Translations under genes and position numbers: made by a program | Part shown: positions 2,342 to 61,149 of the stretch, in pieces | How positions within the stretch are numbered: position 1 is the stretch's first letter | Layout: the number at the start of each line of letters is the position of its first letter | The notes under the pieces: model-generated | Database searches by the model: none | What the model saw: the letters and a program-made list of their open reading frames with translations, nothing else | Told to the model about the DNA's origin: nothing | DNA from: a virus | Direction: 5' to 3' (one strand) | Length of the DNA: 64,000 bases | Virus record (IMG/VR): IMGVR_UViG_3300045988_092366

Positions 2342-3430
2342 TTATTTCTTTTTAGATTTGCGGCACTCACGACATGTAGAATAGAAGCCATCTTTCGCAG
2401 AATTATTCTTTGAGAAGAATAAAGGATGTGCCAACTTGGTCTTTCCGCATTTGCCGCACTTTTTCCATTGTCCATATTCCACATTTGTGTAATACCACAT
2501 AACATAATTCTTTTGAGCTTGTTCTGCAATCATCTTTGGAATTTTCTTGCGCCATAGCGTTGAGAAATATTGCGCGGTATGTGAAACTCCATATTCAGTC
2601 TCCATCATGCCGCATATCTCGTCATTCGATTTACCATCAATTTTCCATACTAAAAGGTCATATAGCATAGCTGTTGTCTGGTCTTTAGATTTGAATGTCT
2701 GCTCAATTAGGTTCTCAAAGTCTAAAAGCTCCCAGTGCATATCGCAATTGAGGTCAGTATAACATTCCTGCTTAATTGATGAATAGTATGTGAGCAGAAA
2801 TGAAACATGAACTGGATTAAATAATGAGATGACTCCATCGGATACGGGATACCCACGCGAGTCGAAATAAATTTTCTCAGACAAGTCCATATGCGCCATA
2901 TTCTTTAGCTGCGCTGAAACTTTTGACTTTGCAGGCCAACCCTTAACTGACTGCTTTAACAAGTACATCTGCTGATATGTTTCGATAATCTGCTTTTTCA
3001 GATAATAACGTTGCTTACCAGTAGCAGAAAGAAATTGTCGTTTGAGTGATGTGATAATAGAATCGAATTCCCGCATACCAGGAATGTTCTCTAAATCATC
3101 TTCTGAAATAGTATCCTTGTTATCTAGGATTTGATTCTTATCGTTGTTGACGAGTGCATAGATGCCGTCCTCGCCATTTTCCATATTCTCAACCATTTCC
3201 TCAAAAGAAATCTGTCGTTTGTTTACTGTTGCTTCTCTATTCTTCGTGATAATACTACGTTCTTTTTTCTTTTCCTTTTTTGTTTGATTTCTATCTGCGG
3301 CAAAGAGTAGATAGTCTGTCATTACGCGCAGGTAATTTGCATCTAGATTCTCTTGAGAAGTGGCCGCAATGGTTTCCCGCACACATTTAAGTCGTTCTTC
3401 CTGTGTCTTCAATGTGTAATCAAGTGCCAT
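2342..3430 (-). CDS. Hypothetical protein with C-terminal Zn ribbon (CGKCGKTK...CRECRKSKKK)
   Basis: 362-aa ORF with AAGGAGAAG RBS. Its CxKCGKTK ribbon resembles the N-terminal ribbon of 766..2277, so the two look like paralogs. Confidence 0.55.
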   Translation of the reverse strand: MALDYTLKTQEERLKCVRETIAATSQENLDANYLRVMTDYLLFAADRNQTKKEKKKERSIITKNREATVNKRQISFEEMVENMENGEDGIYALVNNDKNQILDNKDTISEDDLENIPGMREFDSIITSLKRQFLSATGKQRYYLKKQIIETYQQMYLLKQSVKGWPAKSKVSAQLKNMAHMDLSEKIYFDSRGYPVSDGVISLFNPVHVSFLLTYYSSIKQECYTDLNCDMHWELLDFENLIEQTFKSKDQTTAMLYDLLVWKIDGKSNDEICGMMETEYGVSHTAQYFSTLWRKKIPKMIAEQAQKNYVMWYYTNVEYGQWKKCGKCGKTKLAHPLFFSKNNSAKDGFYSTCRECRKSKKK

Positions 3431-3470
3431 ATCTTTACTTCTCCTTCTCTATTGGTTTTATTGCATCTAT

Positions 3471-3500
3471 ATTATACCATAAAAGAGTATGAAACGCAAG
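3471..3500 (-). promoter_or_regulatory. sigma70-type promoter for the 3430 operon: TTGCGT-18-TATAAT plus purine-rich leader ACCAATAGAGAAGGAG
   Basis: Reverse complement reads TTGCGTttcatactcttttatggTATAATatagatgcaataaaaccaatagagaaggagaag then ATG. Confidence 0.55.
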
Positions 3501-4214
3501 TGTATTATATAAAATTTTAGATATTTTTCTATGTATATTATATTTAAGTATGCAGCAAATGTGATTACCGTTTTTTGCCCATAAAACCATTACACCTATA
3601 AATTTTGGCCGCAAATGATTACATGTATCATGGTGCTGCTTTGGATTGCCGCGCCGTTGCTTAGAGCAACGGGCGTCAATATACTAACATTTTTGTATGT
3701 CTATTGGCGTAATGCGTATCGCTATAGTAAAATCTGTATAGTTATACCTATGAAAGTATATGGAAAATTATGCACTATTACCCATGCTCACTCTCCCCTT
3801 GCATGGAACCTATTGGATGTGCTACTTTTTCCAAGAGTATCCTATCCCCCTCTGTATGCGGTACGGTAGAGATACCGTTCGTCTCTTGTAAACTAATAAA
3901 CCAACGCAAGACCGCTTGGCTACAGAAATATTCTACTGCAAGTGAGAGTACATCCATACTTCTCACGGCAGAATAAATCTGCAACGTTTAAGACCCAGCT
4001 ATTCACCTCATTGGGGATTTTTGATTTAGGATAGTTCCTAAGCCGACTGGGAACGGCGCTATGGTTAGTTTTGTATATATTATAGCAAAAGGTTCAGCGC
4101 TTTTCAATAGCTTCGTGAAAATTTTTTAATGCCGTAATCGGAAAGTTTAAAAAGCCAATAGAAGGAATAAAGAAGAAAAGCGTTGCGTTTTATGGAATTT
4201 GAAAAATCCTCTTA

Positions 4215-4259
4215 GGTCGGTAATTTGGTATTTCAAAAAATAACTGAGGTCGGTAATTT
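4215..4259. repeat. Direct repeat aggtcggtaatttg x2
   Basis: gaggtcggtaatttggtatttc and gaggtcggtaatttgtgcagg, 31 nt apart, in the divergent non-coding region. Confidence 0.6.
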
Positions 4260-4308
4260 GTGCAGGGCGGGGCGTGCCTGGGAAAAAACAGGACGCGAAC
4301 CCGGAACG

Positions 4309-4346
4309 CCCCCCCCCATAGGGGGGGGGGCTAGCGCGCTAGCGCG
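4309..4346. repeat. Homopolymer palindrome C9-ATA-G10 followed by tandem gctagcgc x2
   Basis: acgcccccccccatagggggggggg ctagcgcgctagcgcg, inside the 1.2-kb non-coding divergent region 3431-4715. Confidence 0.7.
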
Positions 4347-4715
4347 TCAACAGTTTAGCCGCCGCGAGCGATAGCAGACAATGAGCGCGTTACTTGTAAG
4401 GTGATAGACGATAAATGTAACGTTGTATTTGTTGCGTTAGCTCATTGATTCTAAGGCGCTTATAAAGCGCCTTTTTATTTGCCGCTTTTGGTCGTGCCTA
4501 TGCGCGTAGGCATTTTACTAAATGGCACCTTGTAGGCTATTCTGTGGGCTTGCAAGGGTAAAAAATTATGAATTAGTGGTCACAACTTGATAGAGTTGTT
4601 TTTTCTGTGTATTCGCGTATTCACGCTCTCACGGTTTGACTTTTCGCTTGACTTGTATTACACTAAAGGATTAGACCAGAGACTTATGGAGGAATTGTGT
4701 GCGGCAAATTGATAC

Positions 4716-4760
4716 TTGCCAAACTAGGACGCTTACCGCATAATAATAGTTGTCCAAAGG
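4716..4760 (+). promoter_or_regulatory. Promoter TTGCCA-17-CATAAT followed by conserved transcript start AATAGTTGTCCAAAGG
   Basis: The same 17-mer TAATAGTTGTCCAAAGG and the same ggggacRgaWtggRgttagc pre-ATG box recur upstream of the 8257 gene. Confidence 0.5.
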
Positions 4761-4822
4761 CGAGGGTGCAAGGAGCTAACAAAGGGTTAGCCAGCCCGAA
4801 CGGGGACAGAATGGAGTTAGCA

Positions 4823-5293
4823 ATGTCTAACGCTCAGAACTACAACAAGGCTCTCAACCTCGCGGCTCAGTCCCACACCGACAAGTACAACACCACCAAG
4901 ACGCGCGTACTTGCCACGGGCGTTAAGCTTTCGGACGAGGCTTTCGATGCACTTTACCGCGCGGCAGTTGGCACTTCGGGTTTGATTGGTACCGCGCCTA
5001 CCGAGATTAGCGACGCTCAAGCGGATGCTCTGGACCTTCTTGTTGCGTTCCTTAATGCAAACCGTGATGAATGGTTCACGTTCTCCGATTTGTGCGGTCG
5101 TTCGGGCGCTATTAAGACTAGCAAGATTCGCGATTGGAACGGCAACACCTATACCACGCTTGATAATAAGAACACGCGCGACATTCTTAAAGAGTTCTTC
5201 GACCGTCTGATTAAGGCTAAGGTTTTTGAGGTTGATACGATGGTGTTTAAGTCGAACGGTACTAACGTTCTTTACGTTTATAAAGCTCGTTAG
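4823..5293 (+). CDS. Hypothetical protein in GC-rich island, behind a long conserved structured leader
   Basis: ORF 4697..5293. Start chosen at ATG 4823 by analogy with gttagcNcATG of the 8257 gene (ATG 4811 is the alternative). GC-rich codon usage. Confidence 0.55.
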   Translation: MSNAQNYNKALNLAAQSHTDKYNTTKTRVLATGVKLSDEAFDALYRAAVGTSGLIGTAPTEISDAQADALDLLVAFLNANRDEWFTFSDLCGRSGAIKTSKIRDWNGNTYTTLDNKNTRDILKEFFDRLIKAKVFEVDTMVFKSNGTNVLYVYKAR

Positions 5294-5301
5294 TTTTTGA
5301 T

Positions 5302-5325
5302 AGCTAGGGCGGGGAACGTCCCCGC
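5302..5325 (+). terminator. GC hairpin terminator gggcggggaacgtccccgccc
   Basis: Perfect 8-bp GC stem directly after the stop codon. Confidence 0.6.
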
Positions 5326-5354
5326 CCATTACCTTTAGAATTGGAGATATTATA

Positions 5355-5591
5355 ATGTTGTATCTGGTTTCTGTTAGCGGCATTAGCGCGGGCGAACAGC
5401 TTGACGATTACGAGGATTTTATCGTTGAAGCGGAGAACGAGGAGAATCTCGCCGCCGCTATCGTTGCCGACCGTTTGGATGGTATGGAGTCTGGCGAGCT
5501 TGACGGTTCCGTTTGGCGTGTGCGTGAGTTAGGCGATGAATTCGAGCTAGGCATTAAGCTCGATTTTATTTGCAAGGGTGAACGTCTTTAG
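5355..5591 (+). CDS. Small acidic protein (78 aa)
   Basis: ORF with GGAGA RBS, followed by hairpin gggtagggcttgcgccctaccc. Confidence 0.55.
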   Translation: MLYLVSVSGISAGEQLDDYEDFIVEAENEENLAAAIVADRLDGMESGELDGSVWRVRELGDEFELGIKLDFICKGERL

Positions 5592-5600
5592 TTAGTCAAA

Positions 5601-5622
5601 GGGTAGGGCTTGCGCCCTACCC
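5601..5622 (+). terminator. GC hairpin gggtagggcttgcgccctaccc
   Basis: Inverted repeat after the stop. Confidence 0.55.
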
Positions 5623-5641
5623 ACTCTTTGAAAGTGGAATA

Positions 5642-6124
5642 ATGAAAGCAATTGTATTAGACCTTGACGGCGTGCTTGTTGATTTTTACAACGTCAACGG
5701 TTGGTTGCCTATGTTGCAAGCGGAAAACGCCGCGCCTTACCTAATCGCTAAACCGTTAGGCGACTACAAGAAACTAAACAGTTTGCTTGCCGCTTTGCAG
5801 GGCTACGGTTATGCGGTTGAAGTTATTAGTTGGTTGGCAAAGGGCAAGACTACTAAGCAATTTGATAGCGCGGTACGCAAGAATAAACGCGCATGGTTGC
5901 GCAAGTATTACCCTGCTATTGATTTGCGAAACGTTCACGTGGTCAAGCATGGCACTAACAAGTGGCGCGTATCAAACTACAAAGGCGGCATTTTGTTTGA
6001 CGATGAAAGCGGTAACGTCCACGCGTGGCAACGTGATACGTCAAGCGGCAAAGCGGTACGTATTAAAGATGAAACTACTTTGCTAGACGCGCTAGAATCT
6101 CTTATTATCCAAGAGCTAGAATAG
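5642..6124 (+). CDS. HAD-superfamily phosphatase, 5'(3')-deoxyribonucleotidase-like
   Basis: N-terminal MKAIVLDLDGVLVDF is the DxDGV HAD motif I; 160 aa. Confidence 0.7.
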   Translation: MKAIVLDLDGVLVDFYNVNGWLPMLQAENAAPYLIAKPLGDYKKLNSLLAALQGYGYAVEVISWLAKGKTTKQFDSAVRKNKRAWLRKYYPAIDLRNVHVVKHGTNKWRVSNYKGGILFDDESGNVHAWQRDTSSGKAVRIKDETTLLDALESLIIQELE

Positions 6125-6128
6125 AGTT

Positions 6129-6150
6129 AGGGGAGCGGCAACGTTCCCCT
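6129..6150 (+). terminator. GC hairpin aggggagcggcaacgttcccct
   Basis: Inverted repeat after the stop. Confidence 0.55.
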
Positions 6151-6638
6151 ATGTTTCACGTGAAACGGTGACAAATGAAACTGTACAAATTAGTTAAATG
6201 GTTGCCCGTTATAATGGGTTCTATTGGTTTGATTCAATTAGTTTTAGATATGCATGATTGGAGCGTTGTATTTTTCTTCTTTATGGCTCTAACTTATACG
6301 ATATTTTAAAGGCACCTAAAAGGTGCCTTTTTCCGTTACGCCATAGTTGGCGGCGATTTTACCACAACACGTAACCAAAAGCAAGAGAAAAATTAGAAAA
6401 ACTTTTTCTTTTTTCTCGCGTGCGGCACGTCCTAAAAGTGCTATACTAACCTTAGTCGGGAGGACAACGGCACCGAACATAGCCTACTCATTATGACTTC
6501 GGTGTTGGCGCAGAATGCGCCGACCCCGGCGTTTGCTACGCAAACGGCGACACGTTCTCTACAGTTAGGTACCTTGAGTTAGCTATGGCTAACTTTGGCA
6601 AGTTAGCCTAGGTGAACAAAAATAATTTAAAATAATGC

Positions 6639-6666
6639 TTGCATTGTCCGCGCAAACAGCTATTAT
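6639..6666 (+). promoter_or_regulatory. Promoter TTGCAT-16-TATTAT
   Basis: Upstream of the exonuclease gene; followed by AAGGAG RBS. Confidence 0.45.
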
Positions 6667-6709
6667 TATAAGTGTAGTGATTAGCCCAAACGATTAAGGA
6701 GTTTTTCCT

Positions 6710-7423
6710 ATGGCTAACTTTGTTGTACTCGATACCGAGACCGCCCCAACCGTCAATCACAAAGACGGCAAGGCGCACCCCGAGACGTCTTTGGTTTACG
6801 ATTTTGGCTATACCATCCGCGACAACGACAATAACGCTATTCGTGAGCGTTCGTTTGTAGTCACGGACACGTTTTATCAAATTGACCTCATGAAAAGTGC
6901 CTACTACGCCGATAAAATCCCTACCTATCTTGAGGGAATTAAGACGGGCGAATGGGTCGAATCGTCTTTTAATGAGGTTTGGCGCACGTTCAAAGCAGAT
7001 TGTAAAGAGTGCAACGTTAAAAGCGCGTGGGCGTACAATTGTCGATTTGACGAGATAGCGCTAAACAATACGTTGCGCACGTATTCAAACGGTTTCGCTA
7101 CGTGGTTCATGCCCTTTAAGCTACGACTTAAAGACATTTGGGACTATGCAAGTAACATTACTAGTTCTAAGCGCTATCTAAAGTATTGCGTGGCAACAGG
7201 CGCATTTACACCCACGGGCAACCCGTCCACTAGTGCGGAAAGTGTTTACCGCTTTATCAATAGCGAACACGACTTTACCGAGGACCATACCGCACTTTCA
7301 GACGCGCGCATTGAGGCCGCTATTTTGCTTGCGGCAAAGGCTAAGCACAAAAAGACGCGCCACGGTTCGCGCGGTCAAGGTTGGCGAGACGCAAGCGCGG
7401 CATTTAAAGCGCTCGACCTTTAG
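6710..7423 (+). CDS. DEDDh 3'-5' exonuclease (DnaQ/RNase T-like)
   Basis: Exo I motif VVLDTETA at the N-terminus and Exo III motif HTALSDARIEAAIL near the C-terminus; 237 aa. Confidence 0.8.
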   Translation: MANFVVLDTETAPTVNHKDGKAHPETSLVYDFGYTIRDNDNNAIRERSFVVTDTFYQIDLMKSAYYADKIPTYLEGIKTGEWVESSFNEVWRTFKADCKECNVKSAWAYNCRFDEIALNNTLRTYSNGFATWFMPFKLRLKDIWDYASNITSSKRYLKYCVATGAFTPTGNPSTSAESVYRFINSEHDFTEDHTALSDARIEAAILLAAKAKHKKTRHGSRGQGWRDASAAFKALDL

Positions 7424-7429
7424 AAAACT

Positions 7430-7458
7430 AGGGGAACGGTTTCGACCGCTCCCCTTTT
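7430..7458 (+). terminator. GC hairpin plus T-run aggggaacggtttcgaccgctcccctttt
   Basis: Inverted repeat with U-tract. Confidence 0.65.
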
Positions 7459-7787
7459 CTTTTGCCATGAGCAAAAGCGATTCTAGCGCCCTAGAGCGTG
7501 CGGCAAGCCCCTTTATTTAAAATAAGGACTTTGGCCTAATGGCACCTTAAAACGCGTCTCATGGCCGCTATGGCGATATTTTTTTATTTAGGTACCGCAT
7601 TATCCGACAAGAAGTTAGCTATGGTTAATCGTGAATCATCGTTAGGTACCTAACTATTAAAATAGTTTACCTGGGTAAACTTCCCAAGACGCCATTTATG
7701 GCGCAAAAAATTATGACACACCCGAGCTGATTTGTCAAGCATTATTTTCAGATTTTTTTGAAAACATATTTCCTTCACAAATCCTGA

Positions 7788-7871
7788 TTGAAACGCTTTA
7801 ATTTTTAAAACGCTTTAAAGTTAGCCTAGGGTAACGCCGATTGAAGCGCTTCAAGTTTTGAAACGTTTCAA
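7788..7871. promoter_or_regulatory. Tandem operator-like palindromes TTGAAACG(N)TTTCAA
   Basis: ttgaaacgctttaa, aaaacgctttaaag, ttgaagcgcttcaag and ttttgaaacgtttcaaatg (a perfect 14-bp palindrome) within 85 nt. Confidence 0.5.
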
Positions 7872-8147
7872 ATGCACTTGTTTAAACAACCGAAGCCCCG
7901 AGGTTGGGGCCAAAATTTTACACCCGTCTAATTAGGTTTGTCAAGAAAAATCTTTTGACAATTTTCAGAAAAACACAAACATAACACATCCCGAAACCCA
8001 AATTTTTTTATGCAAGATTTGCCGCAAATGGCCTGATTCTATTCATTTTGCTTTATCTGGCTACAGTGCCGATATTTTGGGAATCTGAAAAAACTAGGCC
8101 ATCTACCTGCGGTTTCCATGATTCCTCCATATTTTTTCAAAAAGTTC

Positions 8148-8192
8148 TTGCCAAAAGTCTATGCAAAGCGTATAGTAATAGTTGTCCAAAGG
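8148..8192 (+). promoter_or_regulatory. Promoter TTGCCA-17-TATAGT followed by conserved start AATAGTTGTCCAAAGG
   Basis: Paralogous to the promoter and leader at 4716-4760. Confidence 0.5.
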
Positions 8193-8256
8193 GGACAGAG
8201 AAAAAAGAGCCGAACGGCGGCTCACTCGCGTCTCGGGGACGGATTGGGGTTAGCTC

Positions 8257-8685
8257 ATGGCTACCACTCGCACCAAGTTTCAGTTCACCGACTATCAGAT
8301 GTTCGCCGCTTTGGTGAACGTGGCGGGTGAAGTCTCGCCCGAGGTCATCAAGTCCGCGCTGGGGGACAATTATGACCCCGAGAAGCACACGCCCGAGAAC
8401 CTTGCCCGCAAGGTTTCCCACAAGTTCCACGTTCTCAAGGAGAACGCTGCCAAGCCCAAGGAGCCGTCTAATACGGCTCAGCTCAACAAGGTGCTTGCTG
8501 AACAGGTGGCAGCTGAGTTCGCCGATGGTAAGCCATTCACGCTCAACGACGTTATGATTAAGCACCCCAACGAGGTTAGGACGTTCTCAAAAGCGGGCGT
8601 TGTGGTCAACGTTCTGCTCTCTGAGAAGCGCGTCCGCAAGGCGGCACCTATCAACAACAAGACAGCTTATATCATCGTAGCGTAG
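8257..8685 (+). CDS. Hypothetical protein (142 aa) in GC-rich island
   Basis: ORF with conserved leader, GGGG/GGAG RBS and a strong downstream hairpin. Confidence 0.55.
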   Translation: MATTRTKFQFTDYQMFAALVNVAGEVSPEVIKSALGDNYDPEKHTPENLARKVSHKFHVLKENAAKPKEPSNTAQLNKVLAEQVAAEFADGKPFTLNDVMIKHPNEVRTFSKAGVVVNVLLSEKRVRKAAPINNKTAYIIVA

Positions 8686-8693
8686 TCATCTAG

Positions 8694-8717
8694 GGTGGGG
8701 CGATAACAAGCCCCACC
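8694..8717 (+). terminator. GC hairpin ggtggggcgataacaagccccacc
   Basis: Inverted repeat after the stop. Confidence 0.55.
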
Positions 8718-8758
8718 CACTACCCTTGCACCTATAGAACAGCATAGGACGGTCACGT

Positions 8759-9025
8759 TTGGAAGCCTACAGACGTAACGCGCTAATTGCGGCATTTGGC
8801 GAGCTACCCGACAAAGAGCTACAGCGCCTAGGGCGCGGGCTTGAAGCCCACCACGCCAACTGTATGAAAAGCGGTCAAGTTGTATTAGTCCCGGTCGAGA
8901 TTCACGAACTAATACACACGCTAACGCGCCTAGGCGGCAACGCCTACGCGAGCGGCGAAACCGACAACGCGCAAGTACTCATAGAATGCGCACAAATGCT
9001 ATTAGCGCAATTTACAATAAAATAA
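8759..9025 (+). CDS. Small protein with HNH-like His/Asn pattern (EAHHANC...VEIHELIH); TTG start
   Basis: 88-aa ORF (TTG start as given by the ORF track), followed by terminator aaccccacctgcccggtggggttttctttt. Confidence 0.35.
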   Translation: MEAYRRNALIAAFGELPDKELQRLGRGLEAHHANCMKSGQVVLVPVEIHELIHTLTRLGGNAYASGETDNAQVLIECAQMLLAQFTIK

Positions 9026-9041
9026 CACAATTAAATAAATA

Positions 9042-9071
9042 ACCCCACCTGCCCGGTGGGGTTTTCTTTTG
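9042..9071 (+). terminator. Rho-independent terminator aaccccacctgcccggtggggttttctttt
   Basis: GC hairpin plus U-tract. Confidence 0.7.
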
Positions 9072-9457
9072 CGTTTAATTCCTACTGAAAAGGTAGGAAA
9101 AAGATCGCCCTGCCTAGCACAAACGCGCAGAAAAGTCAAGATATTTTGAAAAAAATCACAGAAAATCCATAGTTGGGTCGATTTTACACGATTAGGTACC
9201 TTATTGTCAAGATTTTTCAAGCAAAAACACAACTTTTACACAAAAAACTGAGCGCCTGAAACGCGTTTTAACGGCTTTGCGTTCCTAAGCACTTTTAGCT
9301 ATCGCGCCTTTTAGGGCTATCTCAGGGCCGCACACGCGAAAAAAATTAAGTTAGGTACCAAGCGACCAGAGCAAGTGTTACCCTCGGCTAACTCCGAATC
9401 ATTATGAGGTACCTAACTATTATTTGTGGAGATTCCGTGTTGGTTTTGTGAAGAGTC

Positions 9458-9486
9458 TTGACAGGCTGGAAAATCTATGGTATAAT
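9458..9486 (+). promoter_or_regulatory. Orphan consensus promoter TTGACA-17-TATAAT with no downstream ORF
   Basis: cTTGACAggctggaaaatctatggTATAATataat. The next ~200 nt are non-coding, with direct repeat cgcctatatggcga x2 and hairpin atccct...agggat. Confidence 0.55.
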
Positions 9487-9996
9487 ATAATAGAGGAGTA
9501 CTATACAATAATACCATATTTGGGACTGCCGCCGCCGTTGCGCCTATATGGCGAAAATATGTAGAAATGGGGGCCTGCCAGCCCAGCGCCCACAAAATCC
9601 TAAAACGAAAGTCAATCATAAAATTAAATAAAAAATCCCTCCCCGCCTATATGGCGAGAAGGGATAGAACTAGCGTCTACCAAGAGAACGTTCTAAAATG
9701 AATTTTAATCGTTTTTTGCGTACCCCTGTACGGTACAGGAAAAATAAATCTATTTGTCTTGATTCCTGCGGCCAGTAGAAATTCAAAGTCAATCGCCAAG
9801 GCGCGCTTGCGCGTCATAAAATAGGCTCACATAAACCAAGAGACAAAAGAAAAAACAGTGTGCGGCACATGCTTTTTGTAAGTGAAAATCAATGCGGAAA
9901 TGTAACTAATTTAGTCACATTTAAAAAGTGTTTTTTAATATATATTTTTATTAAAGTGTAAATTACACTTTCCTGCCCAGAAATTTTGGCCGCATC

Positions 9997-10368
9997 TTAT
10001 TTTGCCTTGGGCTTACGCTTGCATACCATAGACATCTCATACGTCTTGGAATTGAGAATGAATCGGATTTTACCATCATCGCCGACCTCGATGCCATGCG
10101 GGGAATCCTCCCAGTCACCGATGGTCATAGTAAGCTCTCCTAGTGCGTCCACAATGGAATTCATAATCAATCGCTTTTCAGACACTTTCTTCTCCTTCTT
10201 GTCTGTATCAGGTCTATATGCTGCGTCATACTCGATGCCATGCTCTAGCAGATAGAGGTTGGCCGCACTTGCTTTGAGAATTGCCTGCTGTCTCTTGGAC
10301 TCGATATACTCGTCAGGAATCTCTATGGTATGCTCGTTACCTTTCATATCATAGTAAGTGTACCGCAT
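9997..10368 (-). CDS. Hypothetical protein (123 aa)
   Basis: ORF at the left end of the minus-strand block. Confidence 0.5.
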   Translation of the reverse strand: MRYTYYDMKGNEHTIEIPDEYIESKRQQAILKASAANLYLLEHGIEYDAAYRPDTDKKEKKVSEKRLIMNSIVDALGELTMTIGDWEDSPHGIEVGDDGKIRFILNSKTYEMSMVCKRKPKAK

Positions 10369-10479
10369 ATGCTTACTTCCTTCTATCTCTTGGAATAGGC
10401 CGGGAGTCTCGTCAAATGGACTCCACGGCCCTTCTAATTAAAAACTCTAATAAGTAGACCCTACTTATTAAATATTTCG

Positions 10480-10809
10480 CTACAGAGCCTTGTACGTGAA
10501 GGTCTTGCTGTTCACTGCCACCTTCTCGGCACGACCGTCCTCAACGAGGAAACGCATGTTGGCCGCAACCTTGCGGGAGCTGACATCCTCGCCCATGTGC
10601 ATGGCTACAGCCTTGGAGGTCGCAGGCTCGTCAAAAGACTTGAGAGCTGCGTAAATCTCGTCAAGGAAAGCCTGCTTCTCTGCGGACTTCTCAGCGTCCT
10701 TGGCACGCTTACGCTCGATAGCCGCAAGCTGCTTATCACAGAATTCTACAACGTCTGCGTTGTCGGACATAGCGGACTTGATGGTGTTGTAAATCTCAAA
10801 CTGGGTCAT
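10480..10809 (-). CDS. Hypothetical protein (GC-richer), start trimmed to MTQFEIY
   Basis: ORF 10480..10836. Upstream is a conserved TATAAT plus TTAAAGAAAGGGAGG leader whose sequence includes the first annotated codons. Confidence 0.45.
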   Translation of the reverse strand: MTQFEIYNTIKSAMSDNADVVEFCDKQLAAIERKRAKDAEKSAEKQAFLDEIYAALKSFDEPATSKAVAMHMGEDVSSRKVAANMRFLVEDGRAEKVAVNSKTFTYKAL

Positions 10810-11026
10810 GCTAATCTTCTTTCTCTTGGAACCCACGGGAGGTTTCTTATCCCCTCCCTTTCTTTAATTATATTATACTATAAGTTTTTACTGGCCGCAA
10901 GAACTTTTTCAAGATGAATTTGGTTTTGAAAATGAAAACCGAAATGGAATTCAATTTCGTTTTAGAAATGAAATTCGTTTTTGTAATTGGAATCGAAAAT
11001 TAAAAGGGTTGGGCTGAATTTTTTTC

Positions 11027-11055
11027 TTGACATTGGTTTGCTGAACTGGTAAAAT
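11027..11055 (+). promoter_or_regulatory. Plus-strand promoter TTGACA-17-TAAAAT reading antisense into the 3' end of gene 11154..12005
   Basis: tcTTGACAttggtttgctgaactggTAAAATgcg; no plus-strand ORF downstream. Confidence 0.35.
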
Positions 11056-11153
11056 GCGCACTTCAATGAATTAAGTCATGTAATCATTTTTACACTTATA
11101 TGGACTTTCTTCACAGCTTTAACACTGTATACACAATGCTTATGTTGTCATTT

Positions 11154-12005
11154 TTAGTCTTCCAACATAGACTTCACTTTAAGTTCATTTGGCGACAACG
11201 AGAATAGAGCCTGTACAACGTCAGCATTTGCAGATTTTTTCGCCAAATGTTCAAGCCATGCGTCACCACATTCTTCACCAAGTTTTTTATAGTAGTCCTT
11301 GATTTCACTAAGAGTAACCAACTTGCACTCTTTATTATCAATATCAGCATACGCTTTTATTTCTTTCAACGTATTCTCAATAGATTCCTTCTGCGCACGT
11401 GCATAATCATTTACCCTGTAGAGTTCAGTATAAAGACCTTTCTTTCCCTTACGGTATACAGCTTTCCCCGCATACTCGATAAGACCTACATCCCTAAGCA
11501 CGATAAGGAACTCGTCTACTCGGCGAATATTCCTTGCGTTCTTGCAATATCCAAGAGCCTTCAAAATCTCAGTGCGGGAAAAGAAATAATTCTCACCACC
11601 CTTAAAGAATGCTTCATGAAGTTGATACCACCTTTTAAGATAGCAATATGTCTTGAAGCAATCTGCGCTTAACGCACTGAGACAGAATCTAACGGTATCC
11701 ACAGGGATAGTGACATACTGTCCTTCCACTGGCTGCACGATAACGTTCATACCATTTATCTTGATAACATCCAATGATTCAAAGCAACTCATGACATTTC
11801 TGATTTGATAGTTCGTCAAGCCTACACTTTTCAATCTGGCTCGGCTGTCCTTCATAGATAGAATTCTCGTATTGTCCTTCTCCAATCTAGTATCTAACAT
11901 TAGACTTCCCATAGCATTGTAGTCACAGTTTTTATTTTCCAATTTCTCTGGGTCTACGCTAAAACTCAACTTAGGTGCTTTGTGGCTTTCTTCTTTATCT
12001 GTCAT
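11154..12005 (-). CDS. Winged-helix-like protein, putative replication initiator or regulator, sitting beside iterons
   Basis: Start trimmed to MTDKEESHK (RBS AAGGAGA). The C-terminal region RTEILKALGYC...LIVLRDVGLIEYAGKAVYRKGKKGLYTELYRV looks winged-helix-like. Five iterons lie immediately upstream. Confidence 0.45.
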   Translation of the reverse strand: MTDKEESHKAPKLSFSVDPEKLENKNCDYNAMGSLMLDTRLEKDNTRILSMKDSRARLKSVGLTNYQIRNVMSCFESLDVIKINGMNVIVQPVEGQYVTIPVDTVRFCLSALSADCFKTYCYLKRWYQLHEAFFKGGENYFFSRTEILKALGYCKNARNIRRVDEFLIVLRDVGLIEYAGKAVYRKGKKGLYTELYRVNDYARAQKESIENTLKEIKAYADIDNKECKLVTLSEIKDYYKKLGEECGDAWLEHLAKKSANADVVQALFSLSPNELKVKSMLED

Positions 12006-25318: not shown

Positions 25319-25798
25319 CTATACAATCATATACTCGTCTACAAGACCCTTAGCCTTGGCGCGAGCAGGCATATAACGTCCAGCCCACATGCGGCGAATG
25401 ACATCCTCTGGAACACGCTCTACACCACCACGTTTGGCATTCTGCGGCAAAGCGATGTCAAGACCACGGTTGAAGTACACAAGGATAATCTTGTCGGCGT
25501 TCTTACCGCAATTCTCAACGGTCTTGCGAAGCGACTTCCAAGAAATATGAGTAGCATCTGCAATAACATTAATATCATTGCAAAGATTGTCGTTAATCTG
25601 ACTATAGAAACCCTTAATAACGTCACTCTCATACTTAAAGTAATCCATAGAAGGAAGAAAATCAGGGTCATTTGCCATATACTCAAAGCGAATATAATCA
25701 CGAGAAACAATTTTGGCATTAAGTTCAGCACTATGCTCATGCGCCCAAAACGACTTGCCGCAACCAGGAATTCCTGCTAGAATATAAAGATTAGCCAT
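25319..25798 (-). CDS. P-loop kinase (polynucleotide-kinase/AAA_33-like)
   Basis: MANLYILAGIPGCGKSFWA is a Walker A motif; 159 aa. Promoter TTGACT...TATAATATATTTAAAGAAAGCCAAAAGAAGGAGA upstream. Confidence 0.6.
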   Translation of the reverse strand: MANLYILAGIPGCGKSFWAHEHSAELNAKIVSRDYIRFEYMANDPDFLPSMDYFKYESDVIKGFYSQINDNLCNDINVIADATHISWKSLRKTVENCGKNADKIILVYFNRGLDIALPQNAKRGGVERVPEDVIRRMWAGRYMPARAKAKGLVDEYMIV

Positions 25799-36932: not shown

Positions 36933-37883
36933 TTAATTTTCAAACCAGTTACGCAACTCGATTACCGAAGGGCAAGTTCCTCGACCTTGCTCGCGGCACT
37001 CTTCCACGAACTCAGGAATTGCGTCCATGAGACTGGGTTCAAATGCCAGCTTGTTCTTGATGTTCTTGATAGTCTCAATATCGCGTCCAGTCCAAACCTG
37101 CTGCAAAACTCCACGAGCCTGCTTCCAGTTCTTGTACCAAGGAGTCTTATACTTCACCATAAAACCGTCTGCATCCTCGAAGACAAAGCCCTCGATGCTA
37201 GCACGTGCGGCCCACTTGTCAATGAAGGCTTCAAACTCCTGCCAGTTAGCAATGACTTTGCTAAGAACCTTGCAATAGAATCCAAAATGTCCAGCTACAT
37301 CAATAAGTGTATAGTACCCCGCATGGCTATAGTTGAAATCATTGTACACCAAGTCCAAAAGCACAAGGTGAGGATGTGAATACTCAACGATATGCGGGTC
37401 ATGGATAGGGTCAATGCACTCGAAGACAGCAGTGCAGTCATTCTTGTGCAGATATTCTGCAAATTCCTCCTGCTGTGCAGTGGTCAACGTCTTGTCAAGA
37501 ACGTCACGGATATATCCTGCAAAATCTCCCTCATTCGTGCTCTTGGATGCGATGAACAGCTTACCGTCCTCGGTCGGGTCGGCAGAAATCATCGCAAGAA
37601 ATCCGTTAGACTTGACATATGCGCACACAGGGAACACAAGATTCTCACGCAGGCTAACCATTTCAGTCTCAGGACGCTCTCCAATGTTGAAAAATTTGTT
37701 GTACGAACGTGCAACAACCTTATTGTTAGCACAATCCACGAAAAGCCCTCGACTACGAATCGAAGCAGAATCCCATTCCTTTTTGAAAAAGCACTTGTTG
37801 GAGAAATTAAAAGACGAGATTCCATTTGCAAGATGCTTCTCGCGCACAAGCGAGCTATTACGCAGCATATCGACTTCGTTCAT
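36933..37883 (-). CDS. ATP-dependent ligase-like nucleotidyltransferase (RNA/DNA ligase superfamily, KSNG variant of motif I)
   Basis: Motif I AYVKSNGFLAM; III TAVFECID; IV EGFVFEDADG; V FMVKYKT. 316 aa. Confidence 0.55.
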   Translation of the reverse strand: MNEVDMLRNSSLVREKHLANGISSFNFSNKCFFKKEWDSASIRSRGLFVDCANNKVVARSYNKFFNIGERPETEMVSLRENLVFPVCAYVKSNGFLAMISADPTEDGKLFIASKSTNEGDFAGYIRDVLDKTLTTAQQEEFAEYLHKNDCTAVFECIDPIHDPHIVEYSHPHLVLLDLVYNDFNYSHAGYYTLIDVAGHFGFYCKVLSKVIANWQEFEAFIDKWAARASIEGFVFEDADGFMVKYKTPWYKNWKQARGVLQQVWTGRDIETIKNIKNKLAFEPSLMDAIPEFVEECREQGRGTCPSVIELRNWFEN

Positions 37884-45419: not shown

Positions 45420-45830
45420 TTTTTAAAGATAATTTGAGTAAAAATTTTTTCTTGACAAAAGATTTGAAAATCATTATACTTTTTAACTGGGTTGTTAAGG
45501 GGTTTACCCCTTAAATATATATAATATAAATTATATTAGTTTATAATGTAATTAAATTAGTTTATATATTAGTTTATATGTATATATTGATTTTTATATA
45601 TATAAGAGATATTATATAATTGTTTTATATATAAGAGATATTATTATAAAGAAATTCCTGTGCTACGCACAGTAATTTCTATTAAAAGAAGAGAATAAAA
45701 GAATAAAGAAAAATAAACTACTTTACTACGTAAAGTAGTAAAAAGAAACAGGAAAAAGAGAAGAAAAAAGTTCTTGCGTGCGGCCAAAAATTCATGTATA
45801 ATGTAGCTATGAAAACAAGAGAAAGGATTT
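45420..45830. repeat. AT-rich divergent control region with direct repeats (tagtttata x3; tatataagagatattat x2; ctactttactacgtaaagtagtaaa palindrome)
   Basis: Lies between the first minus-strand and first plus-strand promoters; candidate origin of replication. Confidence 0.55.
45775..45804 (+). promoter_or_regulatory. Promoter TTGCGT-18-TATAAT for the RNA ligase gene; leader ACAAGAGAAAGGA
   Basis: ttcTTGCGTgcggccaaaaattcatgTATAATgtagc. Confidence 0.6.
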
Positions 45831-45834
45831 TATA

Positions 45835-46767
45835 ATGTCTCACTTCAATAAGTATGTGCATCTTGAGCGCTCGACTCGTGCAGAAGTCCAGAACTTCATC
45901 GGTCGTGACGTAATTTTGCAGCCTAAACTGGATGGTAGCAACGCTTCCATCTGGGTAGATGATGATGGAAATATCGCTTGCGGCAGCCGCACCCGTGAGA
46001 TTTCTGTTGATAATGATAATGCTGGTTTCACTGAGTACGTCACCAACACTGATGATGTTGAGGTCAAGGCACTAAAGAACTGGTTGCTTGACCATCCTAA
46101 TTATATCATTTATGGTGAGTGGCTTGGCGGTGTTGATGGCCGCAAGTTTACTGGTACTATCAAGACTTATCTTGAGGGCGGTTTCTTCATCTTTGATATT
46201 CTCAATACTGAGGATGGTGAGTATATTGATTATGATGTATGGTATCCAGTAGTCAGCAAGTTCTATCATCGTTGCGTTCCTGTCATTTGCCGCATCAATA
46301 ACATGACTTGGGATGATGTGAACAAGCATGTTGACGAGTGTACTTACAATCTTCCGAAAGGAACTATCGGAGAGGGCATCGTAATCAAGGCTTATCCTTG
46401 CGTGCGCGACCCGTGGGGTAATGTTCAAATTGCCAAGATTGTCCGTGACGAGTGGCATCAGGATAAGTCTAAGAAGAAGCCTGTCTACACGGGCACTGAC
46501 TCTTTGGAGAAGGAGTTTGTAGAGAAGTATTGCACCGATGCCTTTGTCGAGAAGGAGGTCAATAAGGTTCTTATCGCTCTTGATATGGACAAAATTGATT
46601 GTAAGAACGGCAAGTTCTTCGGCATGGCTATCAATAAGGTTCTTGACGAACTTATGGAAGAGAACTTCTGGGATTTCTTCAAGAAGAAGAAAGCTGCTTC
46701 TGTCAAACTGGCCGCAATCAAGGGTCTTACTCAAGCACGAGTACGCGAGTACATTCTTAACAACTAA
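45835..46767 (+). CDS. Rnl2-family ATP-dependent RNA ligase
   Basis: YVHLERSTRAEVQNFIGRDVILQPKLDGSNASIWVDDDGNIACGSRTREI parallels T4 Rnl2 Y..LEnhy...ewvarEKIHGTNfSliie.d.v.caKRTg; motif I KLDGS. Confidence 0.7.
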   Translation: MSHFNKYVHLERSTRAEVQNFIGRDVILQPKLDGSNASIWVDDDGNIACGSRTREISVDNDNAGFTEYVTNTDDVEVKALKNWLLDHPNYIIYGEWLGGVDGRKFTGTIKTYLEGGFFIFDILNTEDGEYIDYDVWYPVVSKFYHRCVPVICRINNMTWDDVNKHVDECTYNLPKGTIGEGIVIKAYPCVRDPWGNVQIAKIVRDEWHQDKSKKKPVYTGTDSLEKEFVEKYCTDAFVEKEVNKVLIALDMDKIDCKNGKFFGMAINKVLDELMEENFWDFFKKKKAASVKLAAIKGLTQARVREYILNN

Positions 46768-60464: not shown

Positions 60465-60806
60465 GTGCGGTCCTGCTGCCAAGTGCTCGGAGTGCGCCGC
60501 AAGATAGCGAATAAGTTGCGTAAAGCCGGTGAATGGATGACTGAGAAATACATCGGAAAAGCCAGGCACTACAAGCACAACAACGACTTGTTCTGGAAAT
60601 ATAGAGACATCGTACTTGACGATAATGGCAATCCTGTTACGGACGATAACGGCAGACTTGTATGGCTACTGCTCAGATGGAAGGGTTGCGACAACGCTGC
60701 ATGGTGGACGAAAGGGTACAAGGATTGCAAGCTGTGCCGCGATGAAGGCAAGACGTACTGCATCGACTTTACCGACTGCAACGTCTACGAGGTCGTAAGC
60801 GAATGA
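60465..60806 (+). CDS. Hypothetical protein in the second GC-rich island (start ambiguous; alternative ATG at MTEKYIGK)
   Basis: ORF; local GC near 50%. Confidence 0.4.
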   Translation: MRSCCQVLGVRRKIANKLRKAGEWMTEKYIGKARHYKHNNDLFWKYRDIVLDDNGNPVTDDNGRLVWLLLRWKGCDNAAWWTKGYKDCKLCRDEGKTYCIDFTDCNVYEVVSE

Positions 60807-60831: not shown

Positions 60832-61149
60832 ATGCTAACAGCGGATGAAGTCAAGTTCCTAAAGGAGCTTCAAGACAAATTGAATACGCAAGAGACGTTT
60901 TGTCAAGCGGACCCACGTTTCTGGGTAGTTGAGCAGGATCGCTGGTACACATGCCCAAAGGGCTACGAAGACCGCGTTGTTGTCGTAGACAACGAAGGGT
61001 GTGACACAATGACTCTTGGGCAGGGCGTGAAAGCAGCATTTTCTAGCATCCAAGCGAAGTTTAGCAGCGAGGACGCAACTGAGTGGCTAAGCAATTGGGG
61101 ACATAGCACTTGCCGCCGAGACAATGTTATTTATCTAAATCGTATTTAA
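60832..61149 (+). CDS. Hypothetical protein (105 aa), GC-rich island
   Basis: ORF. Confidence 0.45.
   Translation: MLTADEVKFLKELQDKLNTQETFCQADPRFWVVEQDRWYTCPKGYEDRVVVVDNEGCDTMTLGQGVKAAFSSIQAKFSSEDATEWLSNWGHSTCRRDNVIYLNRI

Follow-up and report, generated by a model that had tools for sequence, protein, structure and literature searches.

The window analyzed here is a stretch of 64,000 nucleotides from the virus record IMGVR_UViG_3300045988_092366 and represents 64 kb of the ~140-kb genome of a large tailed phage, an uncultured gut phage. Genes for topoisomerase II subunits, a DNA ligase, RNA ligases, PhoH and a radical-SAM protein are present in it, along with seven tRNA genes. A gene for a sigma-like protein is located at positions 2342–3430 on the minus strand, and the orthologues of its adjoining gene in related phages have a YonG_N domain. 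Next to these genes lies a block of six small genes on the plus strand (4823–9025), which differs from the remaining window by its GC-rich codons. This block, its expression signals and its origin are the subject of the present analysis.

All six open reading frames (ORFs) of the block show variation dominated by the third codon position among about 20 relatives and therefore evolve as coding genes. The first, g4823 (4823–5293), encodes a protein of 156 amino acids with unassigned function, displays CpG-rich codons and a GC content at third codon positions (GC3) of 0.59, and has 36, 28 and 97 variable sites at codon positions one, two and three. It is present in about 64% of the relatives and is missing from about a third of the close ones. 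The following g5355 (5355–5591; GC3 0.54; variable sites 31/22/53) encodes an acidic protein of 78 amino acids, again with unassigned function, and in some relatives the leader described below as leader 1 is joined directly to this gene.

The third gene, g5642 (5642–6124; 160 amino acids; GC3 0.50; variable sites 41/15/117), had been assigned to a HAD nucleotidase in an earlier note on this DNA. The assignment to the 5′(3′)-deoxyribonucleotidase-like proteins of the HAD superfamily is supported by a match to the Pfam family NT5C with 26.0 bits (cut-off 24.8), which aligns residues 71–130 only, and by a match to PHROG 2643, annotated as 5′-3′ deoxyribonucleotidase (E = 2.4e-10). Furthermore, the N-terminus MKAIVLDLDGVL contains the sequence DLDG, which represents HAD motif I, DxDx(T/V). 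A match to the NCBIfam model HAD-IIIC falls short of its cut-off.

For g6710 (6710–7423; 237 amino acids; GC3 0.55; CpG ratio 1.61; variable sites 47/24/176) the DEDDh (DnaQ-like) 3′-5′ exonuclease recognized earlier was likewise recovered. Across 30 homologues of 39–81% identity, D8, E10, N110, D114, H193 and D198 never vary and F113 hardly does; these residues make up the DxE, Nx3D and Hx4D motifs of DEDDh enzymes. Sequence-only searches of Pfam and of the PDB gave no match. The AlphaFold2 model displays a predicted local distance difference test score (pLDDT) of 92.4 and a predicted template modeling score of 0.89, and the top Foldseek matches in the PDB are a DnaQ domain, the epsilon subunit of DNA polymerase III, ExoI, RNase T and 3′hExo, with a probability of 1.00 and E-values of 4.5e-8 to 1e-5. 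The enzyme identities of g6710 and g5642 are confirmed on the level of the family, for g6710 also on that of the modeled fold; activity and substrate are predicted.

The fifth gene, g8257 (8257–8685), encodes 142 amino acids and has the strongest codon bias of the block, with uniformly C- or G-ending codons and a GC3 of 0.73. Its AlphaFold2 model reaches a pLDDT of 73.5 and the C-terminal 65 residues weakly resemble a winged helix, with weak Foldseek matches to winged-helix proteins (E 0.03–0.1). The CpG-rich g8759 (8759–9025; 88 amino acids, function unassigned; GC3 0.54; variable sites 21/15/56) does not occur in all close relatives: L016, at least, lacks window positions 8752–9119, which include it. 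Searches for protein families by sequence found none for g4823, g5355, g8257 and g8759. Downstream, two leftward genes converge on the block, g9997 and g10480 (9997–10836, minus strand), with a GC3 of 0.55 and 0.70, respectively. Their promoter lies at about 10908 on the minus strand and reads AAAAAGTTCTTGCGG-N17-TATAAT, and g10480 is a weak paralogue of g8257.

On the level of base composition, the region 4000–9100 had been described as islands of ~50% GC inside a genome of ~33% GC. A sliding-window analysis of GC and codon usage showed that the contrast is real but had been overstated, since the region has 46.3% GC compared with 38.3% in the rest of the window. Values of 50–54% are reached as peaks in 500-nt windows at 7.0–7.5 kb and 8.0–9.0 kb. 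The high-GC codon usage of the six genes was confirmed, with GC3 values of 0.50–0.73 versus 0.365 ± 0.094 for 57 other genes (Mann-Whitney p = 3.3e-6), and the smaller patches pointed out before are real as well (GC3 0.70 at 10480–10836, 0.66 at 60465–60806 and 0.50 at 60832–61149). The excess of GC is mostly synonymous and confined to coding sequences and hairpins, and the non-coding DNA within the block has 38–40% GC, which is the level of the backbone.

Two flavors of codon usage can be distinguished. The CpG-rich flavor (4823, 5355, 5642, 6710 and 8759) has a CpG ratio of 1.5–1.6 versus 0.95 in the backbone, is depleted in GA/TC and AT and enriched in AA/TT, and favors GCG, CGC, GGC, ACG, AAC, CAC and TAC. 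Here, 12 of the 17 CpG-rich 400-nt windows present in the 64 kb fall within the block. The second flavor (8257, 10480, 16121 and 60465) is uniformly C/G-ending, with a backbone-like CpG ratio and codons such as AAG, GAG, CAG, TTC, ATC and TCC.

Apart from the codons, several short words are unevenly used in this DNA. GATC occurs twice in 64 kb (9103 and 60937) and is absent from 48 kb of backbone, where ~150 copies are expected, and CCGG is depleted in both block and backbone. A joint avoidance of restriction sites in block and backbone is also seen in the relatives L021 and L051; in L053, CCGG is depleted in neither part. The avoidance of GATC and CCGG points to a lineage-specific restriction or Dam-type pressure. 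A block-specific avoidance of GGCC (1 observed, 12 expected) was considered as a sign of foreign DNA and dropped, since it was not reproduced in the relatives. The words GCGGCA (103 copies) and TGCGGCA (59 copies) are present in the window at ~10 times the mononucleotide expectation, on both strands, with no orientation bias and in coding as well as non-coding DNA; no function was found for them. The chi-like motifs AGCGG, GAAGCGG, GCGCGTG and GCTGGTGG are neither enriched nor orientation-biased in the window.

Two promoters were identified in front of the block genes. P1 (4716–4744, plus strand) consists of TTGCCA, a spacer of 17 nt and CATAAT. P2 (8148–8176, plus strand) reads AAAAAGTTCTTGCCA-17 nt-TATAGT, again with TTGCCA as -35 element, and both score 10/12 in a consensus scan. 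In the relatives, the -35 element CTTGCCAAA of P1 and its spacing are kept, and for both promoters the position of the -10 element is kept with a sequence varying as TAnnnT. A promoter type of its own, as it had been claimed for the block, is not supported by these elements, which are sigma70-like -35/-10 pairs and lie in front of two of the six genes only. Perfect TTGACA-17/18-TATAAT promoters are common elsewhere in the window, upstream of replication and tRNA genes. The upstream half of P2, AAAAAGTTCTTGC, is common to six other strong promoters of the window. This family, AAAAAGTTCTTGC-N17-TATAATATAnTTAAAGAAAGG, has copies at 10908, 14129, 16395, 20673 and 34194 on the minus strand and at 45766 on the plus strand, and the GC3 downstream is at least 0.5 for five of the six copies, the gene behind 14129 not being resolved. 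The genes assigned to the AAAAAGTTCTTGC-N17-TATAAT family (8257, 10480, 16121, 20228, 33778 and 45835), the first three of which belong to the C/G-ending flavor, all have a GC3 of at least 0.5, which fits a bias linked to the expression level.

The 17-mer TAATAGTTGTCCAAAGG reported as a shared transcript start occurs exactly twice in the window, at 4744 and 8176, and the two boxes in front of the start codons and both internal leader hairpins are present as described. The leader transcript starts are predicted from the position of the -10 element only. Leader 1 (4744–4822, plus strand) starts with the box TAATAGTTGTCCAAAGG (4744–4760), in which UUGUCC (4750–4755) pairs with GGACAG (4804–4809). 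This closing helix encloses a GGGYG/CRCCC stem and an apical hairpin (4775–4791), and the Shine-Dalgarno sequence and ATG come next. Folding of 15 distinct sequences with RNAalifold resulted in 97.9% of cells paired. In leader 2 (8176–8256, plus strand; 97.3% of cells paired), UUGUCC (8182–8187) can pair with a proximal GGACAG (8193–8198) or a distal GGACGG (8237–8242), and the apical hairpin is located at 8207–8223. The apical helices covary, with changes on both sides in three of five pairs of leader 1 and in five of six pairs of leader 2, and for either helix none of 500 shuffles attains the covariation score. Counted over the whole leader, three pairs change on both sides in leader 1 and six in leader 2.

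Both leaders fold alike, and their shared architecture consists of UUGUCC at the predicted 5′ end paired with GGACRG just 5′ of the Shine-Dalgarno sequence. The closing helix displays only A-U/G-U exchanges, and two-sided changes are lacking because its 5′ arm never varies; the observed exchanges are consistent with the predicted pairing. In a search of the leaders and the non-coding stretches against Rfam, only tRNAs reached the gathering threshold in the window, and a permissive search of 3400–11200 gave a best E-value of 0.27, with all hits far under the gathering scores.

The box itself is conserved beyond the surrounding promoter. The sequence AATAGTTGTCCAAAGG, which directly follows the -10 element, shows no change in any relative, not even in L021 with its diverged -35 element and spacer. 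L066 has a variant of the box in front of its g8257 homologue, and L050 has the exact form TTGTCCAAAGGGGACA. A scan of IMG/VR with the 16-mer box identified 40 stretches, 18 of them outside the close relatives. Six of these 18 (L076, L081, L084, L087, L103 and L105) show the complete arrangement of a sigma70 promoter, 4 nt, the box TTGTCCAAAGGGGACA, a Shine-Dalgarno sequence and a start codon. These six contigs are 24–183 kb in length, five of them at least 130 kb, and one is the L050 contig. The other matches, which lack this arrangement, are probably due to chance; by a rough estimate, tens of chance matches are expected for a 16-mer in a collection of this size. The ORFs behind the box in the six contigs are mutually unrelated and four of the six are AT-rich (GC3 0.25–0.36). 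Since the box precedes unrelated and mostly AT-rich ORFs, it appears to be a portable expression element separable from GC-rich coding. In the distant relative L049, the same block contains seven promoters of the form UP-TTGACA-17-TGnTAAAAT, several of which run straight into a conserved GC-rich leader start.

Each gene of the block had been thought to end in a strong GC-hairpin terminator. A GC hairpin indeed follows every gene, but a T-tract is present on only three of seven hairpins. In the relatives, these gene-end hairpins are kept via compensatory changes, full sequence replacement and loop inversion. Intercistronic GC hairpins without T-tract are located at 5307–5327, 5601–5622 and 8693–8718 on the plus strand. 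A further hairpin at 6130–6149 is followed by a conserved 14-bp palindrome GTTTCACGTGAAAC (6153–6166; whole feature 6130–6166, plus strand); no T-run is present here in the window, while one follows in some relatives. Intrinsic terminators are found at 6309–6333 (plus strand, hairpin and T-run), at 7430–7455 after the exonuclease gene and at 9041–9063, the latter two being bidirectional. Since T-tracts are restricted to 6309, 7430 and 9041, the block divides into three operons, which end at these terminators, and the remaining hairpins lie between cistrons.

The long stretches at 7.46–8.15 kb and 9.07–9.99 kb, which had been taken as non-coding and filled with palindromes, contain no ORF with a coding-type substitution pattern, and palindromes are present. 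None of the small ORFs in the non-coding stretches has such a pattern, and a 44-codon ORF at 6175–6309 is not coding-like either (variable sites 38/31/37 by codon position). The stretch 5′ of the exonuclease gene (6335–6709, plus strand) contains an extended -10 element TGCTATACT at ~6437–6445 and a TTAGGTACC site at 6565. Only 26% of its sites vary, and 6350–6450 shows 93–97% identity among close relatives. The stretch 7460–8147 (38% GC) harbors the palindromes TTAGGTACCTAA and AGTTTACCTGGGTAAACT, four copies of TTGAAACGYTTCAA (7788–7871) and minus-strand promoters at 7738 and 7944. The stretch 9070–9990 (40% GC) harbors TTAGGTACC sites, promoters at 9210 (minus strand) and 9458–9486 (plus strand) and a minus-strand terminator (9665–9635). 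These three stretches match the conservation of coding DNA, with 88–97% identity in many 50-nt windows among close relatives. Their variability per site is 0.26–0.48; in the exonuclease gene it is 0.15 at codon positions one and two and 0.75 at position three.

The palindromes are restricted in their distribution. All seven exact matches of TTAGGTACC(TAA) lie within 6565–9416, and TTAGGTACCTAA occurs only in this interval. In AGTTTACCTGGGTAAACT (7664–7681) the arms are conserved and the center is variable, and the same 8-3-8 palindrome has four copies in L053 and five in L049. The form AGTTWACC-N3-GGTWAACT is common to the window, L053 and L049. These palindrome families look like operators for dimeric DNA-binding proteins, and TTAGGTACCTAA, AGTTTACC-N3-GGTAAACT and the leader RNA are candidate sites for a regulator. 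Copies of GTGCGGCA are found at 4699, 6420, 7498 and 9860, in non-coding DNA of the block; as an alternative promoter element this sequence was rejected, since a conserved downstream -10 element was not found.

Some further observations concern the same non-coding DNA. Leftward promoters scoring 11/12 are present at 7738–7710, 7944–7915 and 9210–9181 and face the bidirectional terminators at 7430 and 9041. The perfect TTGACA-17-TATAAT promoter at 9458–9486 has no downstream ORF and is aimed into the converging leftward genes 9997 and 10480. These promoters may give rise to small or antisense RNAs or to transcriptional interference. The sequence CTATGGCTAACTTTG at 6581–6595 duplicates the start region of the exonuclease gene (6707–6721) and opens an 8-codon ORF, MANFGKLA*, 128 nt 5′ of it (region 6577–6600). 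A similar start-like remnant, AGTTAGCTATGGTTAA, is present at 7613–7628. At the left edge, two 33-nt direct repeats (4193–4258) and a C9-ATA-G10 palindrome (4308–4330) mark the exact site at which most relatives cease to be similar. At window position 4369, these relatives have an additional 1.5–3.5 kb of small cassettes; those of L010 include a minus-strand ORF of 59% GC at 4422–4871.

The relationships of the phage were studied on several levels. A megablast search of GenBank phages with the block and 20 kb of backbone gave no match, and searches on protein level recovered only distant Enterococcus phages and phAss-1. In IMG/VR, about two dozen relatives with 80–95% nucleotide identity were found, with contigs of 134–147 kb and breakpoints at differing positions. 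The closest isolates are the Enterococcus phages EF1, H1 and VRE9 (~33% protein identity), and the closest described metagenomic phage is phAss-1. For the phAss-1 group, Clostridia are the predicted hosts and TAG is read as glutamine in some members (PMC10607447). Such a recoding (code 15) was rejected for the window, since 30 of 104 ORFs end in TAG and no suppressor tRNA is present in it; the check covered these 64 kb, i.e., one of the two halves of the genome. The coding density is 0.81 with code 11 and 0.84 with code 15. Within the block (4823–9025), TAG is the stop codon of five of seven ORFs, and recoding is not evident in the window. Among 185,579 species genomes of GTDB, homologues of the exonuclease were found in only nine contigs of metagenome-assembled genomes (MAGs). 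The bins of these contigs were unusable for an assignment of the host due to their mixed taxonomy (Anaerovoracaceae, Clostridia, Lachnospiraceae, Erysipelotrichaceae and Prevotella). Most carriers of the exonuclease family are phage contigs of 130–180 kb. Elsewhere in the window, two RNA ligases and an AAA_33 (polynucleotide-kinase-like) protein are encoded at 25319–25798, 36933–37883 and 45835–46767; together with the seven tRNA genes at 26.7–43 kb, they are reminiscent of tRNA repair against anticodon nucleases.

In the relatives, the orthologues of the nucleotidase, the exonuclease, g8257, g9997 and g10480 adjoin the same sigma-like and YonG_N-like genes, and the layout of the cluster, with small genes in separate units, host-type promoters and terminators, is the same. 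Such a syntenic block was found in relatives whose sigma-like protein is 75, 58, 58, 56, 54, 53 and 41% identical to that of the window, which represents eight or more lineages. In most of them, the block orthologues are GC3-rich and the flanks AT-rich; the GC3 of the exonuclease gene is 0.54, 0.61, 0.63, 0.62 and 0.61 versus 0.43, 0.32, 0.41, 0.29 and 0.25 for the sigma-like gene. Since synonymous sites should be saturated at such distances, the bias represents a steady state and not a remnant.

One lineage departs from this. In L066 the genes are AT-rich, with a GC3 of 0.32 for the exonuclease and 0.19 for the nucleotidase, whereas L067, which is equally distant from the window, has 0.61 and 0.45. 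The identities of the exonuclease and the sigma-like protein agree among the window, L021, L066 and L067. As these identities agree yet GC3 differs, the composition changed in place and the genes were not replaced. In a comparison of six lineages, the GC3 of the exonuclease gene tracks that of the g10480 homologue and not that of the sigma-like gene, which with n = 6 is only suggestive. The orthologues of the Enterococcus phages, whose Enterococcus host is AT-rich, display no GC3 excess, and phAss-1 has about 50% GC throughout its last 24 kb.

The explanation we favor, with moderate confidence, is that the block is an ancestral, syntenic accessory module of early type, with operons read by the host RNA polymerase and a codon composition kept by expression-linked selection. 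The block is inherited and not a recent import, and it is probably a selected expression module. Here, the block would be transcribed divergently from the phage sigma-like gene, probably by the host enzyme from the sigma70-like promoters. The first operon would run from P1 (4716) and its leader through g4823, g5355 and the HAD nucleotidase gene to the terminator at 6309–6333, the second would comprise the DEDDh exonuclease gene and the terminator at 7430, and the third would run from P2 (8148) and its leader through g8257, for the putative winged-helix protein, and g8759 to the terminator at 9041. The mRNAs would begin with a conserved stem, in which UUGUCC is paired to GGACAR. Hairpins without a U-tract would remain inside the operons and those with a U-tract would end them. 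Such an mRNA design, with a 5′ stem, a strong Shine-Dalgarno sequence and a hairpin after each cistron, would suit strong and durable expression. The GC-rich synonymous composition would be held in place by expression-linked selection, for which the host tRNA pool, high expression or mRNA stability are likely causes. Of these, the most plausible would be that the genes are translated with host tRNAs, either ahead of the phage tRNAs or without any dependence on them. Early timing, use of the host polymerase and the selective cause are what we infer from these data.

The polymorphism data point in the same direction, as the equilibrium GC3 calculated from them is 0.44–0.61 for block genes and 0.37–0.39 for backbone genes. 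Furthermore, two phage tRNAs read codons that are favored in the backbone and avoided in the block (ACA, 0.34 vs. 0.05; CCA, 0.39 vs. 0.08–0.10). Nevertheless, several results weigh against expression-linked selection on an inherited module. The tRNA argument fits only two of the five informative phage tRNAs, and the equilibrium GC3 is somewhat under the present GC3 of the block genes. The CpG-rich flavor retains TTT, ATT and CAA and is depleted in GA/TC, which is not a simple optimal-codon pattern. Compared with synonymous shuffles, the folding of the mRNAs is mixed: the z-scores of 6710, 8257 and 8759 are about -3, those of 5642 and 10480 are near 0, and that of 4823 is +2.2. The AT-rich replication and tRNA genes of the backbone also follow perfect sigma70 promoters, so that transcription by the host alone fails to explain the GC content. 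Finally, exchange does occur at this locus: the sigma-like proteins of L049 and L050 are 84% identical while their exonucleases are only 36% identical, i.e., in at least this one pair of lineages the exonuclease was swapped for a distant homologue, and close relatives differ by entire cassettes.

This mosaic nature is also what would be expected if a plasmid, another phage or a host of higher GC content had donated the block or its CpG-rich genes and the composition of the donor had been retained, which was one of the readings in the earlier note. The atypical GC content and dinucleotide signature, the existence of 50%-GC members such as phAss-1 in the wider clade, cassettes that are present or absent, including the extra DNA at 4369, and the replaced exonuclease between L049 and L050 are in line with such an acquisition. 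However, the orthologues are syntenic and mostly GC-rich in many deeply diverged relatives, the very pattern that the earlier note had named as speaking against acquisition. Within the window's group, the identities of exonuclease and sigma-like protein agree though GC3 spans 0.32–0.61, so that the GC-rich alleles share no more recent origin. Block and backbone avoid the same restriction sites, the substitutions are near equilibrium and not decaying toward 0.37, no integrase or transposase family was matched among the ORFs of the region, and no pair of repeats flanking the block was seen, the nearest tRNA being at 26.7 kb. The search for a donor lineage gave homologues only in this phage clade, together with the nine MAG contigs, and no match was obtained in a plasmid collection searched by protein and distant DNA similarity. 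A recent import is thereby largely refuted, and an import, recent or ancient, is poorly supported; we regard acquisition as very unlikely. Somewhat less improbable, but still hard to credit, is a neutral regional process, i.e., GC-biased gene conversion or reshuffling in a shared pool of early genes without selection on expression. In its favor, no other part of the locus is as mosaic as this region, where hairpin loops flip and cassettes come and go, and polymorphisms that are AT-biased relative to the current GC3, as seen here, are expected if a fixation bias opposes mutation pressure. Against it, non-coding DNA of the same region remains at backbone GC and GC3-rich genes with the same promoter type are located far from the block (16121, 20228, 33778, 45835 and 60465). 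Moreover, no divergent exonuclease alleles were seen among close relatives, and L066 retains a mosaic early block yet has AT-rich orthologues.

A distinct regulatory regime, the other reading of the earlier note, stands in part. The two operons with leaders do share a promoter, an invariant 16-nt box and a covarying leader, but the promoters are host-sigma70-like and the box is not tied to GC elsewhere. Here, a phage factor, possibly g8257/g10480 or the sigma-like protein, would read the box, the leader or the palindromes, and GC-rich structured mRNA would be needed for control or for protection from nucleases. The invariance of the box amid diverged flanks and its recurrence behind sigma70 promoters in other large phages, the covariation within the leaders, palindromes (TTAGGTACCTAA and AGTTWACC-N3-GGTWAACT) restricted to the block and shared with distant relatives, non-coding stretches conserved above synonymous sites, and three coding sequences folding more stably than synonymous shuffles (z about -3) all favor this. 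Against it, the box directly precedes only two of the six genes and stands before AT-rich ORFs in four of six phages elsewhere (GC3 0.25–0.36), the -35/-10 elements are host-like, the z-scores of mRNA folding are mixed and the support for a winged helix is weak. As the sole explanation such a regime is doubtful; a dedicated regulator may coexist with the expression-linked selection favored above. In a more far-reaching reading, the genes expressed first would be recoded to the tRNA pool of the current host or away from its AT-targeting defenses, the rest would remain AT-rich on phage tRNAs, and the composition would switch when the host changes, as L066 and L067 suggest. In addition, the box UUGUCCAAAGG(GGACA), found in several large phage lineages, may mark a post-transcriptional regulon of a phage or host factor; we consider this reading as a whole speculative and rather improbable.

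The implications go beyond this phage. An atypical GC content and atypical dinucleotides can be a stable, inherited trait of a gene class, and composition-based island calls in viruses can therefore mislead. If the bias follows host translation, the GC3 of early genes could help to predict the hosts of uncultured large gut phages, and the pair L066/L067 represents a natural experiment. The promoter-proximal box with its leader is a compact candidate element for expression or stability in phages with hosts of the Firmicutes type, without a match in Rfam.

Compared with genomic islands, the block has the atypical GC content, the dinucleotide signature and the mosaic neighborhood in common, and differs in being syntenic clade-wide, with orthologues at the corresponding position in every relative examined, no mobility genes, no outside donor and a composition changed in place. 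On the level of the transcript, the leaders resemble those of Escherichia coli ompA and Bacillus subtilis aprE, which are 5′-terminal stem-loops stabilizing the mRNA. Here as well, a helix 5′ of a strong Shine-Dalgarno sequence shows compensatory changes and would begin only a few nucleotides from the predicted transcript start. In contrast to ompA and aprE, the 5′ arm and the loop UUGUCCAAAGG of the block leaders keep their sequence even among distant phages. Such sequence conservation would not be needed by a simple stabilizer, which suggests a sequence-specific partner.

The gene content recalls the pre-early region of the phages T5 and BF23, where small, mostly uncharacterized genes in opposed units with host promoters serve host-DNA destruction and nucleotide disposal and adjoin a long non-coding region (PMC10644984). 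The block shares with it small genes of unassigned function, host-type promoters in opposed units, long regulatory spacers and the pair of nucleotidase and exonuclease. In T5, the pre-early genes include the 5′-deoxyribonucleotidase Dmp and the nuclease-associated A1. The proteins of the block are not homologous to A1, A2 and Dmp as far as tested, and the window shows no evidence of a terminal repeat, a two-step injection or nicks. To our knowledge, the T5 pre-early region has not been described as GC-rich in its codon usage.

A second parallel is the host-takeover module of SPO1, which comprises many short early genes in small operons with strong host-sigma promoters, ribosome-binding sites and terminators and lies within the terminal redundancy; SPO1 carries its own sigma-like factors for later genes. 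Short genes of early type in small operons with host-type promoters, strong ribosome-binding sites and terminators, and a phage-borne sigma-like factor, are present here as well, but sequence homology is not. We know of no report of a GC contrast in SPO1.

With respect to the codons, temporal gene classes of phages have been shown to use different synonymous codons (Mioduser, Goz and Tuller 2017, PMC5683454). Compared with such an early/late partition, the contrast of the block is large (a GC3 difference of 0.2–0.35) and restricted to a small block and a few scattered genes. It also comes in two flavors, persists deeply and was lost in one lineage, the temporal classes being putative here. Literature searches for reported GC-rich early regions gave nothing relevant. 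In kind, the feature is an ordinary one, a phage early block whose codon usage is specific to an expression class and which has cis elements of its own, in an uncharacterized clade. Of some interest are how large the GC3 contrast is and how long it has persisted in evolution, that one lineage lost it in place, and that several large phage lineages share a 5′ box of invariant sequence.

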